Of a stretch of 64,000 bases of DNA, positions 2,342-12,739 are shown one piece after another. The stretch lies in the NCBI RefSeq assembly GCF_003018235.1, contig NZ_CP027437.1, one strand, 5' to 3'. The notes under the pieces are model-generated. The model worked only from the letters and a program-made list of their open reading frames with translations, ran no database searches and was not told the origin of the DNA. Source of the DNA: Escherichia coli (GTDB lineage: Bacteria > Pseudomonadota > Gammaproteobacteria > Enterobacterales > Enterobacteriaceae). Each line of letters opens with the position of its first letter. The stretch's first letter is position 1. A program made the translations under genes and the position numbers.

Positions 2342-3388
2342 ATGACGCAATTTAATCCCGTTGATCATCCACATCGCCGCTACAACCCGCTCACCGGGCA
2401 ATGGATTCTGGTTTCACCGCACCGCGCTAAGCGCCCCTGGCAGGGGGCGCAGGAAACGCCAGCCAAACAGGTGTTACCTGCGCACGATCCAGATTGCTTC
2501 CTCTGCGCAGGTAATGTGCGGGTGACAGGCGATAAAAACCCCGATTACACCGGGACTTACGTTTTCACTAATGACTTTGCGGCCTTGATGTCTGACACGC
2601 CAGATGCGCCAGAAAGCAACGATCCGCTGATGCGTTGCCAGAGCGCGCGCGGTACCAGCCGGGTGATCTGCTTTTCACCGGATCACAGTAAAACGTTGCC
2701 AGAACTCAGCGTTGCGGCATTGACGGAAATCGTCAAAACCTGGCAGGAGCAAACCGCAGAACTGGGGAAAACATACCCATGGGTGCAGGTCTTTGAAAAC
2801 AAAGGTGCGGCGATGGGCTGCTCTAACCCGCATCCGCACGGACAGATTTGGGCAAATAGCTTCCTGCCTAACGAAGCTGAGCGCGAAGACCGCCTGCAAA
2901 AAGAATATTTTGCCGAACAGAAATCACCAATGCTGGTGGATTATGTTCAGCGCGAGCTGGCAGACGGTAGCCGTACCGTTGTCGAAACCGAACACTGGTT
3001 AGCCGTCGTGCCTTACTGGGCTGCCTGGCCGTTCGAAACGCTACTGCTGCCCAAAGCCCACGTTTTACGGATCACCGATTTGACCGACGCCCAGCGCAGC
3101 GATTTGGCACTGGCGTTGAAAAAGCTGACCAGTCGTTATGACAACCTCTTCCAGTGCTCCTTCCCCTACTCTATGGGCTGGCACGGCGCGCCATTTAATG
3201 GCGAAGAGAATCAACACTGGCAGCTGCACGCGCACTTTTATCCGCCTCTGTTGCGCTCCGCCACCGTACGTAAATTTATGGTTGGTTATGAAATGCTGGC
3301 AGAGACCCAGCGAGACCTGACCGCAGAACAGGCAGCAGAGCGTTTGCGCGCAGTCAGCGATATCCATTTTCGCGAATCCGGAGTGTAA
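2342..3388 (+). CDS. galT: galactose-1-phosphate uridylyltransferase
   Basis: 348 aa, HPH motif (SNPHPHGQ), operon position. Confidence 0.95.
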
Positions 3389-3391
3389 GAA

Positions 3392-4540
3392 ATGAGTCTG
3401 AAAGAAAAAACACAATCTCTGTTTGCCAACGCATTTGGCTACCCTGCCACTCACACCATTCAGGCGCCTGGCCGCGTGAATTTGATTGGTGAACACACCG
3501 ACTACAACGACGGTTTCGTTCTGCCCTGCGCGATTGATTATCAAACCGTGATCAGTTGTGCACCACGCGATGACCGTAAAGTTCGCGTGATGGCAGCCGA
3601 TTATGAAAATCAGCTCGACGAGTTTTCCCTCGATGCGCCCATTGTCGCGCATGAAAGCTATCAATGGGCTAACTACGTTCGTGGCGTGGTGAAACATCTG
3701 CAACTGCGTAACAACAGCTTCGGCGGCGTGGACATGGTGATCAGCGGCAATGTGCCGCAGGGTGCCGGGTTAAGTTCTTCCGCTTCACTGGAAGTCGCGG
3801 TCGGAACCGTATTGCAGCAGCTTTATCATTTGCCGCTGGACGGCGCACAAATCGCGCTTAACGGTCAGGAAGCAGAAAACCAGTTTGTTGGCTGTAACTG
3901 CGGGATCATGGATCAGCTAATTTCCGCACTCGGCAAGAAAGATCATGCCTTGCTGATTGACTGCCGCTCACTGGGGACCAAAGCAGTTTCCATGCCGAAA
4001 GGTGTGGCTGTCGTCATCATCAACAGTAACTTCAAACGTACCCTGGTTGGCAGCGAATACAACACCCGTCGTGAACAGTGCGAAACCGGTGCGCGTTTCT
4101 TCCAGCAGCCAGCCCTGCGCGATGTCACCATTGAAGAGTTCAACGCTGTTGCGCATGAACTGGACCCGATCGTGGCAAAACGCGTGCGTCATATACTGAC
4201 TGAAAACGCCCGCACCGTTGAAGCTGCCAGTGCGCTGGAGCAAGGCGACCTGAAACGTATGGGCGAGTTGATGGCGGAGTCTCATGCCTCTATGCGCGAT
4301 GATTTCGAAATCACCGTGCCGCAAATTGACACTCTGGTAGAAATCGTCAAAGCTGTGATTGGCGACAAAGGTGGCGTACGCATGACCGGCGGCGGATTTG
4401 GCGGCTGTATCGTCGCGCTGATCCCGGAAGAGCTGGTGCCTGCCGTACAGCAAGCTGTCGCTGAACAATATGAAGCAAAAACAGGTATTAAAGAGACTTT
4501 TTACGTTTGTAAACCATCACAAGGAGCAGGACAGTGCTGA
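3392..4540 (+). CDS. galK: galactokinase
   Basis: 382 aa, GHMP kinase motifs ([23 protein letters not shown]). Confidence 0.95.
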
Positions 4541-8556: not shown

Positions 8557-9498
8557 ATGGCGCACTCACACTCACACACTTCCTCACACCTGCCAGAAGA
8601 TAATAATGCTCGTCGCTTGTTGTATGCTTTCGGCGTGACTGCCGGGTTTATGCTCGTAGAAGTCATTGGTGGTTTTCTTTCCGGTTCTCTGGCATTGCTG
8701 GCCGATGCGGGTCATATGTTGACCGATACTGCCGCCCTGCTTTTCGCCCTACTCGCAGTGCAATTTTCCCGTCGTCCTCCCACCATTCGCCACACTTTCG
8801 GTTGGCTAAGATTGACCACGCTCGCGGCGTTTGTGAATGCCATCGCCCTGGTGGTGATTACTATTTTGATTGTCTGGGAGGCGATAGAACGCTTCCGCAC
8901 TCCGCGTCCGGTCGAGGGCGGCATGATGATGGCAATTGCCGTGGCTGGGCTGCTGGCAAATATACTTTCTTTCTGGTTACTTCATCACGGCAGCGAAGAG
9001 AAAAACCTCAACGTGCGAGCAGCGGCACTGCATGTGCTCGGGGACCTGCTGGGTTCGGTTGGGGCTATTATTGCCGCGTTGATTATTATCTGGACCGGCT
9101 GGACACCTGCTGACCCCATTCTCTCAATACTGGTGTCGCTTCTGGTTCTGCGTAGCGCGTGGCGACTGTTGAAAGATAGCGTGAATGAATTACTTGAAGG
9201 TGCACCGGTATCGCTGGATATCGCCGAACTGAAGCGTCGTATGTGCCGGGAAATCCCGGAAGTCCGCAATGTGCACCATGTACATGTATGGATGGTAGGC
9301 GAGAAGCCGGTGATGACGCTGCATGTGCAGGTGATCCCGCCACACGATCACGATGCCTTGTTAGATCAGATCCAACACTACCTGATGGATCACTATCAGA
9401 TTGAGCACGCCACTATTCAGATGGAATATCAACCTTGTCATGGGCCAGACTGCCACCTGAATGAAGGGGTGTCTGGCCATTCACATCATCACCATTAA
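8557..9498 (+). CDS. zitB: Zn(II)/H+ cation diffusion facilitator efflux transporter
   Basis: 313 aa, His-rich N and C termini, six TM helices, CDF motifs. Confidence 0.92.
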
Positions 9499-11385: not shown

Positions 11386-11572
11386 AGATAGTCGAATGGT
11401 GGGGAAAAGTCACTCGAATTACGTATGAGATGACGAATGCCACACTTTGCGTCTTATTCCTCCGACGTAGAGTTGTTTACGCAGCAAGCGCGGAGTAAGT
11501 CATCTGGGTTAAGAATTGAAATTGAGAGATGCCTGAATAGCAAAAAAGCGCCTTTAGGGCTCTTTTTTACAC

Positions 11573-11618
11573 TGGTGGGTCGTGCAGGATGACTCGCTTC
11601 GCTCGCCCTTCGGGCCGT
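11573..11618 (-). repeat. tRNA-Lys 3'-end-derived fragment repeat, copy A
   Basis: Begins with the 16-nt tRNA-Lys 3' end (incl. CCA) then GATGACTCGCTTCGCTCGCCCTTCGGGCCG; three near-identical copies in the array. Confidence 0.6.
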
Positions 11619-11697
11619 CGCCGCGAGCGGCTCCGTTGTTTCGCTGCGCTCAATTCGAACCTGCTGCAGGTTCGAATCTTTGAGTATCGCAGATAGC

Positions 11698-11724
11698 AAA
11701 AAAGCGCCTTTAGGGCGCTTTTTT
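11698..11724 (-). terminator. intrinsic terminator at 3' end of Lys/Val tRNA operon
   Basis: GCGCC/GGCGC hairpin flanked by A-run and T-run; a second near-identical hairpin at about 11544–11567. Confidence 0.65.
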
Positions 11725-11728
11725 ACAT

Positions 11729-11804
11729 TGGTGGGTCGTGCAGGATTCGAACCTGCGACCAATTGATTAAAAGTCAACTGCTCTACCAACTGAGCTAACG
11801 ACCC
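11729..11804 (-). tRNA. tRNA-Lys (anticodon UUU), distal tandem copy
   Basis: 76-nt exact reverse complement of E. coli tRNA-Lys, ending CCA. Confidence 0.92.
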
Positions 11805-11837
11805 CTTGCGGGATTATGCTGCTTTAATCATTCAGGA

Positions 11838-11913
11838 TGGTGGGTCGTGCAGGATTCGAACCTGCGACCAATTGATTAAAAGTCAACTGCTCTACCAACT
11901 GAGCTAACGACCC
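11838..11913 (-). tRNA. lysQ: tRNA-Lys (UUU)
   Basis: Exact tRNA-Lys sequence; part of perfect 109-bp tandem unit. Confidence 0.9.
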
Positions 11914-11946
11914 CTTGCGGGATTATGCTGCTTTAATCATTCAGGA

Positions 11947-12022
11947 TGGTGGGTCGTGCAGGATTCGAACCTGCGACCAATTGATTAAAAGTCAACTGCT
12001 CTACCAACTGAGCTAACGACCC
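11947..12022 (-). tRNA. lysZ: tRNA-Lys (UUU)
   Basis: Exact tRNA-Lys sequence. Confidence 0.9.
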
Positions 12023-12070
12023 ATACGGGTGTTACCTGAAAGATTTCTACTCGGAACCAATCTTTAAAAT

Positions 12071-12141
12071 TGGTGGGTCGTGCAGGATGACTCGCTTCGC
12101 TCGCCCTTCGGGCCGTTGCTGGCGCAACGTTATCCTTCACG
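12071..12141 (-). repeat. tRNA-Lys 3'-end-derived fragment repeat, copy B
   Basis: Shares tRNA 3' end plus about 55 nt with copies A and C. Confidence 0.6.
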
Positions 12142-12168
12142 CTTAACATCTGAGTTTGATGTTAAAAT

Positions 12169-12244
12169 TGGTGGGTCGTGCAGGATTCGAACCTGCGACC
12201 AATTGATTAAAAGTCAACTGCTCTACCAACTGAGCTAACGACCC
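12169..12244 (-). tRNA. lysY: tRNA-Lys (UUU)
   Basis: Exact tRNA-Lys sequence. Confidence 0.9.
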
Positions 12245-12247
12245 GAG

Positions 12248-12323
12248 TGGTGGGTGATGACGGGATCGAACCGCCGACCCCCTCCTTGTAAGGGAGGTGC
12301 TCTCCCAGCTGAGCTAATCACCC
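12248..12323 (-). tRNA. valZ: tRNA-Val (UAC)
   Basis: Reverse complement of GGGTGATTAGCTCAGCTGGGAGAGCACCTCCCTTACAAGGAGGGGGTCGGCGGTTCGATCCCGTCATCACCCACCA. Confidence 0.92.
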
Positions 12324-12374
12324 GATACTGCGCTGGATACTACAAACTACTTCCACCGAACCCACCGTAATTAG

Positions 12375-12450
12375 TGGTGGGTCGTGCAGGATTCGAACCT
12401 GCGACCAATTGATTAAAAGTCAACTGCTCTACCAACTGAGCTAACGACCC
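12375..12450 (-). tRNA. lysW: tRNA-Lys (UUU)
   Basis: Exact tRNA-Lys sequence. Confidence 0.9.
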
Positions 12451-12452
12451 GG

Positions 12453-12528
12453 TGGTGGGTGATGACGGGATCGAACCGCCGACCCCCTCCTTGTAAGGGA
12501 GGTGCTCTCCCAGCTGAGCTAATCACCC
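12453..12528 (-). tRNA. valT: tRNA-Val (UAC)
   Basis: Exact tRNA-Val sequence. Confidence 0.92.
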
Positions 12529-12563
12529 GATACTACGCTGGATACTACAACTAACTATGTTAG

Positions 12564-12636
12564 TGGTGGGTCGTGCAGGATGACTCGACTTCGTCTCGCC
12601 CTTCGGACCGTTGCTGACGCAACGTTATCCTTCACG
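12564..12636 (-). repeat. tRNA-Lys 3'-end-derived fragment repeat, copy C
   Basis: As copies A/B with a few substitutions. Confidence 0.6.
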
Positions 12637-12663
12637 TTTTACTACCGCTTCCACCTTAGCGAT

Positions 12664-12739
12664 TGGTGGGTCGTGCAGGATTCGAACCTGCGACCAATTG
12701 ATTAAAAGTCAACTGCTCTACCAACTGAGCTAACGACCC
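12664..12739 (-). tRNA. lysT: tRNA-Lys (UUU), promoter-proximal
   Basis: Exact tRNA-Lys sequence; first gene of array. Confidence 0.92.

Follow-up and report, generated by a model that had tools for sequence, protein, structure and literature searches.

We conclude, with near certainty, that the three repeats in the spacers of the lysT tRNA operon of Escherichia coli are tRNA-linked repeats (TLRs), which form the Rfam family RtT (RF00391). The lysT repeats are already known and are not new; they belong to a repeat family long known in E. coli. Positions are those of the window, i.e., the whole stretch of 64,000 nt of contig NZ_CP027437.1 that was analyzed. Copies 3, 2, and 1 match RF00391 with scores of 58.2, 57.8, and 51.0 bits, respectively, all above the curated gathering score (45 bits). 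In the lysT operon of K-12, five RF00391 matches were found, one behind each tRNA-Lys. [quoted passage not shown] 2021, PMC8144298); as reviewed in the same paper, the family is attributed to Egan and Landy 1978 and Rudd 1999. Like the TLRs of K-12, where the lysT operon is the five-copy locus of the family, the window copies are located just behind a tRNA gene, in the same orientation and within a tRNA operon, and have a conserved core and an 18-nt tail identical to the tRNA 3' end. The differences (three copies instead of five, and one additional tRNA-Lys gene in this strain) are not essential.

The prototype repeats of tyrT score 133–137 bits, and the core AACGTTGC..GCAACGRCCCGAAGGGYGA..GAGTMATCC is common to them and the lysT copies; its alignment also takes in the Arg-, Pro-, Gln-, and 5S-linked TLRs. 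The RtT (rttR) element of tyrT and the Lys copies share hairpin B, CCCGNAGGG, hairpin C, and GAGTMATCC, and a tail equal to the local tRNA end. In copies 2 and 3, as in tyrT, the tail is predicted to form an outer helix with an upstream complement. They differ in score (about 135 bits for the tyrT copies versus 51–58 bits) and in the tail, which is that of tRNA-Tyr in one case and of tRNA-Lys in the other. Copies 2 and 3 are, in addition, compact: hairpin A and the T-arm-like 5' module are missing, and the Rfam alignment fills their 5' part with genuine upstream tRNA. The tyrT RNA is discrete (rttR, 171 nt, is released from the operon transcript; Bosl and Kersten 1991, as cited in PMC8144298), while the Lys copies are known as spacer sequence. 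Current annotation pipelines already label such repeats (the copy 1 equivalent in NZ_CP062824 is called 'RtT sRNA' by PGAP), and, as part of a textbook-era family, the feature in the window is of little consequence. A preliminary description of this DNA did not recognize the repeats as a named, published family.

The operon lies between cpoB and nadA (flanking gene pairs cpoB/pal and nadA/pnuC), and a repeat search revealed that one of its tRNA-Lys genes is part of a perfect 109-bp tandem duplication. The features of the region are as follows.

11729–12739, minus strand: lysT operon, eight tRNA genes, six Lys-UUU and two Val-UAC (ARAGORN; Rfam tRNA matches).
12739–12664, 12450–12375, and 12244–12169, minus strand: tRNA-Lys genes 1–3 (ARAGORN).
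12022–11947, 11913–11838, and 11804–11729, minus strand: tRNA-Lys genes 4–6 (ARAGORN).
12528–12453 and 12323–12248, minus strand: tRNA-Val genes (ARAGORN).
12564–12636, minus strand: TLR copy 3, compact form, in the lysT-valT spacer (Rfam RtT, 58.2 bits).
12636–12627 and 12581–12572, minus strand: 5' and 3' strands of copy 3 helix P1 (predicted fold).
12624–12609 and 12608–12598, minus strand: copy 3 hairpin B and GUCC-GAA-GGGC hairpin.
12595–12587 and 12571–12564, minus strand: copy 3 hairpin C (GAC-GAA-GUC) and single-stranded tail ACCCACCA.
12071–12141, minus strand: TLR copy 2, compact form, in the lysY-lysZ spacer (Rfam RtT, 57.8 bits).
12141–12132, 12088–12079, and 12078–12071, minus strand: copy 2 P1 5' strand, P1 3' strand, and tail.
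12129–12114 and 12113–12103, minus strand: copy 2 hairpin B and GCCC-GAA-GGGC hairpin.
12100–12094, minus strand: copy 2 hairpin C, reduced (GC-GAA-GC).
11698–11724, minus strand: first (operon) Rho-independent terminator, AAAAAAGCGCCCUAAAGGCGCUUUUUU, 4 nt past the last tRNA-Lys (inverted and direct repeat).
11573–11698, minus strand: TLR copy 1, long degenerate form, after the last tRNA-Lys and between the two terminators (Rfam RtT, 51.0 bits).
11653–11677 and 11573–11590, minus strand: copy 1 T-arm palindrome and 18-nt tail; hairpin B is replaced by GCCGC-UC-GCGGC, and GCCC-GAA-GGGC is present.
11542–11568, minus strand: second terminator copy, 4 nt past the tail of TLR copy 1.

The 18-mer ATCCTGCACGACCCACCA (minus strand) occurs nine times in the window (0.00 occurrences expected from shuffles). 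Six occurrences are genuine tRNA-Lys 3' ends, and three are solitary (11573–11590, 12071–12088, and 12564–12581); the latter match the starts previously reported for three repeats (11573, 12071, and 12564), confirming that the repeats are real. The preliminary description had them start with the terminal 16 nt of tRNA-Lys including CCA. An exact copy is indeed present, but it is 18 nt long and, since the operon is on the minus strand, the repeats end, rather than start, with the tRNA 3' end in the transcript. This shared tail corresponds to nucleotides 59–76 of tRNA-Lys, from the second half of the T-loop through the CCA end. Each element thus consists of a conserved hairpin-rich core of ~45–110 nt and an exact tRNA-Lys tail (18/18 identity in 3/3 copies), with TGGTGGGTCGTGCAGGATGACTCG being 100% identical across all three copies. 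The distances from the preceding tRNA-Lys on the same strand are 82, 80, and 4+27+113 nt for copies 3, 2, and 1, respectively. As direct repeats, 11565–11621 and 12063–12119 are 93% identical, and 12100–12147 and 12595–12642 are 92% identical; the 2-nt difference in length between copies 2 and 3 is due to one extra base pair in hairpin C. The copy 3 string quoted earlier is to be replaced by GATGACTCGACTTCGTCTCGCCCTTCGG, which is 2 nt longer, and copy 1, previously taken to span 11573–11618, is far longer (Rfam match 11573–11698). The inverted T-arm duplication noted there was found at 11653–11677, within copy 1, as the palindrome ATTCGAACCTGC-T-GCAGGTTCGAAT; the 5' part of long-form TLRs is nearly the reverse complement of the tRNA T-arm. 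Sequence derived from tRNA amounts to 18 nt per element, plus 12 nt of T-arm in copy 1.

The lysT transcript is ~1100 nt long, covers the spacers, and stops at the terminator after lysQ, which was placed at the 11698–11724 site (Agrawal et al. 2014, PMC4176162). The duplicated terminator hairpin seen earlier is also genuine: both terminators lie within a 54-nt direct repeat (tail plus terminator; 96% identity). A simple terminator scanner flagged neither operon terminator, and the calls were therefore taken from the direct/inverted-repeat output and the literature. Judging from position and published transcript data, copies 3 and 2 are part of the polycistronic transcript and would accordingly be made with every round of tRNA synthesis, while copy 1, located between the two terminators, would be made by read-through only. 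The layout of copy 1 (T-113-tlr-4-T) is similar to the rrnB T1-rrB-T2 arrangement. RrA, RrB, and RrF, which lie between the dual terminators of rrnA, rrnB, and rrnD (PMC8144298), have the same order of gene, terminator, TLR with an 18-nt gene-end tail, and terminator, and their expression, like that of copy 1, would require read-through; they are, however, linked to 5S rRNA and not to tRNA.

Minimum-energy folds of the compact copies yielded P1, hairpin B, and the GNA hairpin. The fold of copy 3 had a z-score of -2.0; the whole-spacer fold of copy 2 had a z-score of -3.6, and none of 200 shuffles was equally stable. In both copies, P1 is formed by CGUGAAGGAU and AUCCUGCACG (10 bp, one A.G mismatch) and is predicted to close a junction of three small hairpins, leaving ACCCACCA single-stranded. 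In copy 1, a P1 5' strand is missing and the predicted fold leaves the tail unpaired. An alignment of 33 compact TLRs (Lys and Arg) had 91.4% of its cells paired, compared with 84.6% after shuffling (0/500 shuffles reached the observed value) and 28–52% with a slid partner. Compensatory pairs were observed in P1 (columns 6–69: GC, UA, AU, and GU; columns 10–65: GC and AU) and in hairpin C (columns 46–55: GC, AU, CG, and UA). The P1 5' strand follows the tRNA type, being GGGGAAGGAT for Tyr, CGTGAAGGAT for Lys, AGGGAGGAT for Arg, and ACGGCAGGAT for Gln. Because the tRNA dictates the sequence of the P1 3' strand, the apparent covariation in P1 could reflect inverted duplication of the tRNA end at the DNA level rather than selection on RNA. 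Hairpin B and the GNA hairpin are invariant, and the alignment therefore neither supports nor opposes their pairing. The Rfam model pairs T-loop UUCG with CGAA of CCCGNAGGG. The middle base of the motif varies freely, and compact forms retain the motif without UUCG; we therefore prefer a local GCCC-GNA-GGGC hairpin, which is a modeled structure.

We assign a probability of about 0.7 to the following overall explanation of the lysT TLRs. In copies 2 and 3, the tRNA-identical strand pairs with its complement at the 5' edge of the element to form P1, as indicated by the folds and by compensatory changes in relatives. The tRNA-like 3' end would probably allow the enzymes that trim tRNA 3' ends to define, and stop at, the same CCA. 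Trimming there would set the spacer free as a discrete by-product RNA, a fate documented for the RtT RNA of tyrT and for the TLRs of rrn operons. The elements would then be a dispensable structured by-product RNA with a tail that serves as a 3'-end maturation signal and a repeat that drives rearrangement, a reading to which we give slightly better than an even chance. Against it stand the structure and location of copy 1 (no P1 5' strand, behind a terminator) and the spacer probes of Agrawal et al. 2014, which revealed mainly precursors: these were seen in RNase P mutants, with few other species in the wild type, and no stable spacer RNA was described (PMC4176162). An RNA with no role would also leave unexplained the long conservation of the structure across orders of Gammaproteobacteria, in a family discovered more than 40 years ago.

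It had been proposed that the repeats fold into tRNA-like 3' ends and act as decoys or signals for RNase P or the CCA-adding enzyme. Both enzymes recognize the 12-bp acceptor/T-arm stack with the adjacent RCCA. The tail reproduces a tRNA 3' end exactly, CCA included, and adjoins a helix, and RNase P does process the lysT operon starting from its 3' end, removing the terminator (PMC4176162). However, the predicted fold is a 10-bp helix with an A.G mismatch followed by the 8 unpaired nucleotides ACCCACCA, not a 12-bp stack with adjacent RCCA. No tRNA cloverleaf was detected in the repeats, which neither ARAGORN nor the Rfam tRNA model (RF00005) recognized; both call only the eight true genes. 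In addition, the elements are dispensable in nature, and the existence of strains without any lysT TLR makes an essential processing role impossible. We consider a decoy or signal of this kind highly improbable.

The conserved structure would also fit a trans-acting small RNA or protein sponge: released Lys TLR RNAs could bind a regulator, as proposed for RrA, RrB, and RrF with Hfq and CsrA. The rrn TLRs bind both proteins in vitro (PMC8144298), RtT-family RNAs are visible on Northern blots of Actinobacillus pleuropneumoniae (PMC4986893), and a CsrA site close to the consensus is present in hairpin C of some lineages (e.g., GUAUCAGGAUGAUAC in L073/L074). RrA, RrB, and RrF have several GGA motifs. 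In contrast, several loop-exposed GGA motifs were not found in the window copies, whose loops are GAA, GUCA, or GCCA: their sole GGA is base-paired within P1, hairpin C has a GAA loop, and the Lys copies are predicted CsrA non-binders, all 19 tRNA-operon TLRs of K-12 having scored <0.01 as CsrA binders (PMC8144298). The sole phenotype reported for a TLR (tyrT RtT, stringent response) has been retracted (PMC8144298), and strains lacking any Lys TLR exist. A trans-acting role is thus quite unlikely. A permissive Rfam scan of the region (E up to 1) produced nothing credible beyond tRNA and RtT; a YrlA match (44 bits versus 69) and a Plastid-ycf2 match both fell on the tRNA genes themselves. A copy 2 reading frame, MRQQRPEGRAKR..., echoes the tpr peptide of tyrT, but was rejected as coding, since the 2-nt indel in hairpin C interrupts it from one copy to the next; open reading frames in this region are short and show no conservation among the copies.

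Among E. coli strains, each lysT TLR site is cleanly present or absent. Nine strains contained from none (WP3-S18-ESBL-08) to five (K-12) copies. Occupied and empty spacers measured, respectively, 82+18+35 or 35 nt, 80+18+51 or 51 nt, 80+18+48 or 48 nt, and 81+18+33 or 33 nt, and the distal unit was likewise present or absent. The boundaries of unit loss or gain coincide with the 18-nt direct repeat (tRNA end and TLR tail) or, for the distal copy, with the 54-nt repeat of tail plus terminator. Lys-type TLR matches were absent from 170 of 5426 complete genomes; the median was 4 places and the maximum 9. Since natural strains carry anything from zero to five copies, the TLRs are dispensable for tRNA production and, since loss and gain are precise at the repeats, the 18-nt repeats make the lysT operon structurally plastic and prone to recombination. 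As a result of TLRs, strains of a single species differ in the genes and spacers of their tRNA operons, and the natural zero- to five-copy strains are a ready-made test of TLR effect on tRNA supply.

Variation of this kind could also be left by neutral relics, i.e., debris of tRNA-Lys duplication, unequal crossing-over, or gene conversion with no selected structure or role. Clean unit loss, the perfect 109-bp duplication of a Lys gene, which indicates that the locus rearranges, and the degenerate state of copy 1 are all consistent with this view, part of which had been put forward in the preliminary description. The ~45-nt core is, however, unrelated to tRNA-Lys. Across Enterobacterales, it occurs fused to the ends of Tyr, Lys, Arg, Pro, and Gln tRNAs and of 5S rRNA, so that no fewer than five stable RNAs besides tRNA-Lys are involved, and its conservation extends beyond this order. 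Duplication or conversion of a Lys gene alone thus does not account for the elements. The compensatory changes in hairpin C and P1 argue in the same direction, as does the TLR after lysT, which has the same position in Citrobacter, Pluralibacter, and Escherichia. In other genomes, 89 of 105 TLRs had an 18-nt tail that matched, at 18/18 positions, the closest tRNA upstream on the same strand (Arg, Gln, Lys, Pro, or Tyr). The preliminary description would have lost ground had the sequences been confined to E. coli; comparison with other enterobacteria showed conservation in Citrobacter, Klebsiella, Enterobacter, Pluralibacter, and others, so that this objection does not apply. Neutral debris is an unlikely source of the repeats.

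One core at many tRNA ends and 5S rRNA, always at a constant distance from the 3' end, may instead suggest a selfish, non-autonomous module that inserts into stable-RNA genes at a point 18 nt before the 3' end (T-loop, 58/59) by site-specific recombination or an RNA-mediated route, with hairpins that serve its own propagation. Sites that are precisely occupied or empty and bounded by direct repeats would fit, as would tandem arrays (tyrT, L007, and L034), a nearly full-length Citrobacter tRNA-Tyr pseudogene with the core directly after A58, and 74-nt arrays of the core standing free without any tRNA. Scars of integrase attachment sites in the T-loop are likewise built of an intact tRNA gene, foreign DNA, and a direct repeat of the tRNA 3' end from the T-loop; they differ from the lysT repeats, which have no integrase or island, only 80–140 bp between the repeats, covarying hairpins, and a core found beside many tRNAs and 5S rRNA. 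No mobility gene was found between or beside the direct repeats at the lysT locus, where the flanking genes, nadA and cpoB, are not an integrase, transposase, or reverse transcriptase. Deletion between direct repeats explains every observed polymorphism equally well and, acting on the two AAGGTTCGA copies, can also give rise to the Citrobacter chimera; no recent gain event is documented. Insertion of a selfish module thus appears unlikely, if a little less so than a neutral origin.

A broader version of the idea, in which the TLR core is an independent structured module repeatedly joined to stable-RNA genes 18 nt from the 3' end (tRNA 58/59), is in our view improbable; the data are compatible with it, yet do not require it. 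The 18-nt distance equals the length of the tRNA primer that is copied in retroviral reverse transcription. If the broader version were true, this match would point to an undescribed bacterial mechanism of RNA-mediated or site-specific insertion, of which the Citrobacter tRNA-Tyr with the core after A58 and the free 74-nt core arrays would be traces.

Phage and plasmid origins were considered and rejected. A BLAST search of phages with copy 3 returned two Salmonella chromosomal records only, and true phages gave no match. Plasmid matches were mostly to very large records or chromosomal-looking pieces; the one that was checked proved to be a mis-assembled, frameshift-rich gltX-valU-lysV-xapR segment. 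A pattern search of viral contigs placed RtT matches at or near the end of the stored DNA in three cases (L005, L007, and L009), which look to us like host tRNA flanks of predicted prophages.

Eight tRNA genes, all on the (-) strand, were found by ARAGORN at 11729-12739: six tRNA-Lys(UUU) and two tRNA-Val(UAC). In the closest complete genome (99.8% identity, 1.6 kb), the operon lies between nadA/pnuC and cpoB/pal/tolB. The cluster is the lysT operon of E. coli, whose transcription runs from high to low window coordinates.

Layout of the lysT operon, in transcript order
(-), tRNA-Lys
12564-12636 (-), repeat copy 3, in a spacer; stand-alone tRNA-Lys 18-mer at 12564-12581
(-), tRNA-Val, tRNA-Lys, tRNA-Val, tRNA-Lys
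12071-12141 (-), repeat copy 2, in a spacer; stand-alone 18-mer at 12071-12088
(-), tRNA-Lys, tRNA-Lys, tRNA-Lys
(-), terminator
11573-11698 (-), repeat copy 1; stand-alone 18-mer at 11573-11590
(-), second terminator

A perfect 109-bp tandem duplication at 11729-11946 (-), consisting of a tRNA-Lys gene and a 33-nt spacer (100% identical), is the reason for six tRNA-Lys genes here against five in K-12. Of 5426 complete E. coli genomes, only 69 cover this exact arrangement to at least 80%. The lysT transcript, ca. 1100 nt long, contains copies 2 and 3, is processed by RNase P from its 3' end, and normally terminates ahead of copy 1 (PMC4176162). An Rfam search also revealed the CpoB/ybgF RNA thermometer (RF02782, 119 bits) at 1-128 of L002, the K-12 pal-cpoB intergenic region, just upstream of the gene preceding the lysT operon; the equivalent region of the window lies upstream of cpoB, beyond ~13700.

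The tRNA-Lys 18-mer ATCCTGCACGACCCACCA occurs nine times in the window (none expected by chance), six times as a true tRNA-Lys gene end. The three solitary occurrences, together with alignment of the three copies outside the tRNA-derived part (repeat finder families D3, D4, and D6), establish the repeats that the preliminary description had proposed. They share 18 nt of tRNA rather than 16 and, given the minus-strand orientation of the operon, have the tRNA 3' end as their last part instead of their first. Copy 1, put at ca. 45 nt, extends to ca. 126 nt; its inverted T-arm duplication was located as a palindrome at 11653-11677, and the duplicated terminator hairpin proved to lie within a direct repeat of 54 nt (D5, I1).

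All three copies score above the curated threshold of 45 for Rfam family RtT (RF00391; 58.2, 57.8, and 51.0 bits), and the equivalent of copy 1 in a near-identical genome is annotated as "RtT sRNA" by the NCBI pipeline. K-12 MG1655 has five RtT matches in the lysT operon, one behind each tRNA-Lys; the family prototypes next to tyrT and tyrV reach 133-137 bits. Egan and Landy were the first to observe such tRNA-linked repeats (TLRs), in 1978. Rudd's 1999 catalogue lists 22 at ten K-12 loci, one to five per locus, and a TLR is recognised by its final 18-19 bp, identical to the 3' terminus of the tRNA or rRNA that precedes it (Stenum et al. 2021, PMC8144298). We conclude, with a probability of about 0.97, that the three repeats are TLR/RtT elements. 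The finding is a rediscovery of a known family and of low interest in itself; the wider TLR family poses a modest question.

On the transcript strand, copies 2 and 3 read CGUGAAGGAU - AACGUUGC(n4)GCAACG - GYCC GAA GGGC - GA - small hairpin - GAGUC - AUCCUGCACG - ACCCACCA. Energy minimisation of these compact copies yields an outer helix, P1 (CGUGAAGGAU with AUCCUGCACG), hairpin B, a GNA-loop hairpin, and an 8-nt single-stranded end. The preliminary description had suggested decoys for RNase P or the CCA-adding enzyme; the predicted helix and tail have the wrong geometry for this. The fold of the whole lysY-lysZ spacer has z = -3.6, and none of 200 shuffles was as stable. The structure was also counted over an alignment of 33 different compact TLRs, each behind a tRNA-Lys or tRNA-Arg, from E. 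coli and further Enterobacterales. Paired cells made up 91.4%, versus 84.6% when shuffled (reached by 0 of 500 shuffles) and 28-52% with partners slid. P1 varies on both strands (GC/UA/AU/GU at one pair, GC/AU at another), as does one pair of hairpin C (GC, AU, CG, UA); hairpin B and the GNA hairpin are invariant and hence uninformative on pairing. These compensatory changes are left unexplained if the repeats are pure relics of tRNA-Lys gene duplication. Copy 3 exceeds copy 2 by 2 nt through one added base pair in hairpin C (GAC-GAA-GUC versus GC-GAA-GC). The long copy 1 is degenerate: a T-arm half pairs with its own inverted copy, another hairpin replaces B, and the tail is unpaired because the P1 5' strand is absent.

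Short Arg-rich reading frames cross the TLR core at 12047-12127 (-) and 11567-11653 (-) (MRQQRPEGRAKRVILHDPP..., MSAAKQRSRSRRRPEGRAKRVILHDPPV), and echo the "protamine-like" tpr peptide of tyrT (..RRQRPEGRSAQR). The frame is broken in copy 3; the resemblance therefore probably reflects shared nucleotides only.

In the operons of nine E. coli genomes, each TLR site was either filled or precisely empty, with spacers of 82+18+35 or 35, 80+18+51 or 51, 80+18+48 or 48, and 81+18+33 or 33 nt. The distal TLR and second terminator were present in some genomes and absent in others, and the number of TLRs per operon ranged from none (WP3-S18-ESBL-08) to five (K-12), with three in the window. The boundaries of occupied and empty sites are a direct repeat of tRNA end and TLR tail. 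The TLRs of this operon are dispensable in nature, which also speaks against a decoy role, and their clean loss or gain is delimited by these direct repeats. A Lys-type TLR query, whose count takes in the TLR behind lysV, another locus, matched 5256 of 5426 genomes and was without matches in 170 (median 4 places, maximum 9). One locus with a Lys-type TLR behind lysV, L136 (NZ_CP098226.1), is labelled a 50-kb plasmid; it carries gltX, three tRNA-Val, one tRNA-Lys, and xapR, and has numerous genes with frameshifts, so that it resembles a chromosomal segment of low quality or faulty assembly and not a plasmid.

A core-motif scan of 100,044 species genomes returned at least 120 loci. Among the matches listed, the core is joined to 3' ends of tRNA-Tyr, tRNA-Lys, tRNA-Arg, tRNA-Gln, three tRNA-Pro species, and 5S rRNA. 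The retrieved sequence included an upstream tRNA for 105 of them, of which 89 have an 18-nt tail identical to the 3' end of that tRNA. The P1 5' strand differs according to tRNA type. In long forms, the 5' part is nearly the reverse complement of the tRNA T-arm and acceptor strand (for Tyr, GGGGAAGGATGAGAACCTTCG versus GGGGAAGGATTCGAACCTTCG), and T-loop positions 58 and 59 directly flank the core. Comparison with other enterobacteria placed a TLR behind lysT at the same position in Citrobacter, Pluralibacter, and Escherichia. A core common to other RNAs and conservation across genera are likewise unaccounted for by the relic view, which we consider unlikely; the TLRs of the lysT operon are structured spacer modules bearing tRNA ends.

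Cores inside 5S rRNA 3' fragments (GAGAGTAGGAC, core, TCATAAACTGCCAGGCAT; L023, L042, L095, L099, L100, L115, L122, L124, and L125) are apparently the RrA/B/F TLRs of the literature; those in L023, L095, and L099 score below the Rfam RtT gathering score. In two Citrobacter loci (L037 (-) ~1485-1640; L014 (-) ~9267-9425), the first gene past the tyrT promoter is a mutated, nearly full-length tRNA-Tyr, whose T-loop is split by the core exactly after A58 and whose acceptor 3' strand is decayed. Behind it lie two intact tRNA-Tyr genes. Either the core could have inserted into a tRNA gene, or the stretch between the two copies of AAGGTTCGA in a tRNA-plus-TLR unit could have been lost. At 12216-12712 of L007 (IMG/VR 2836850911_000005, a predicted viral contig), which begins inside a tRNA-Lys gene, the tRNA 3' end leads into a Lys-linked tandem array of three 153-nt TLR units, all with a terminator of their own, built like the 178-bp tyrT array; we read this stretch as the host flank of a predicted prophage. 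A selfish insertion module is consistent with the distance being always 18 nt, with the arrays, and with the Citrobacter chimera, but the lysT locus has no mobility gene, no phage or true plasmid copy was found, and deletions account for every polymorphism.

With odds slightly better than even, the tRNA 3'-trimming machinery would define where the released spacer RNA stops, guided by the paired, tRNA-identical 3' end of this RNA. Such an end is seen in the coordinates of annotated rttR (171 nt), whose 3' terminus coincides precisely with the CCA of the first tyrT repeat, and a similar definition, with RNase E, was suggested for 5S-linked TLRs (PMC8144298). A trans-acting RNA is possible, and in vitro binding to Hfq and CsrA is documented for three rrn-linked TLRs; the 19 tRNA-operon TLRs, however, have CsrA-binder scores below 0.01, and the early claim that tyrT RNA modulates the stringent response, the sole reported phenotype, was later retracted (PMC8144298). 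Lys TLRs also have no loop GGA motifs, and strains without copies exist.

Repeats of the same core free of tRNA or 5S sequence were observed in L071 (Pectobacterium betavasculorum, 3220-3476), L092, L093, and L076-L078 (Alloalcanivorax xenomutans), where Rfam returned no family at threshold. The L071 array has 3.5 copies of a 74-nt tandem unit (99% identity); L093 and L076 also contain consecutive units. A unit comprises hairpin A, AACGTTGC..GCAACG, CCCGNAGGG, and hairpin C, whose loop carries AGGA or GGA and, judged by its motif, looks like a CsrA-type site.
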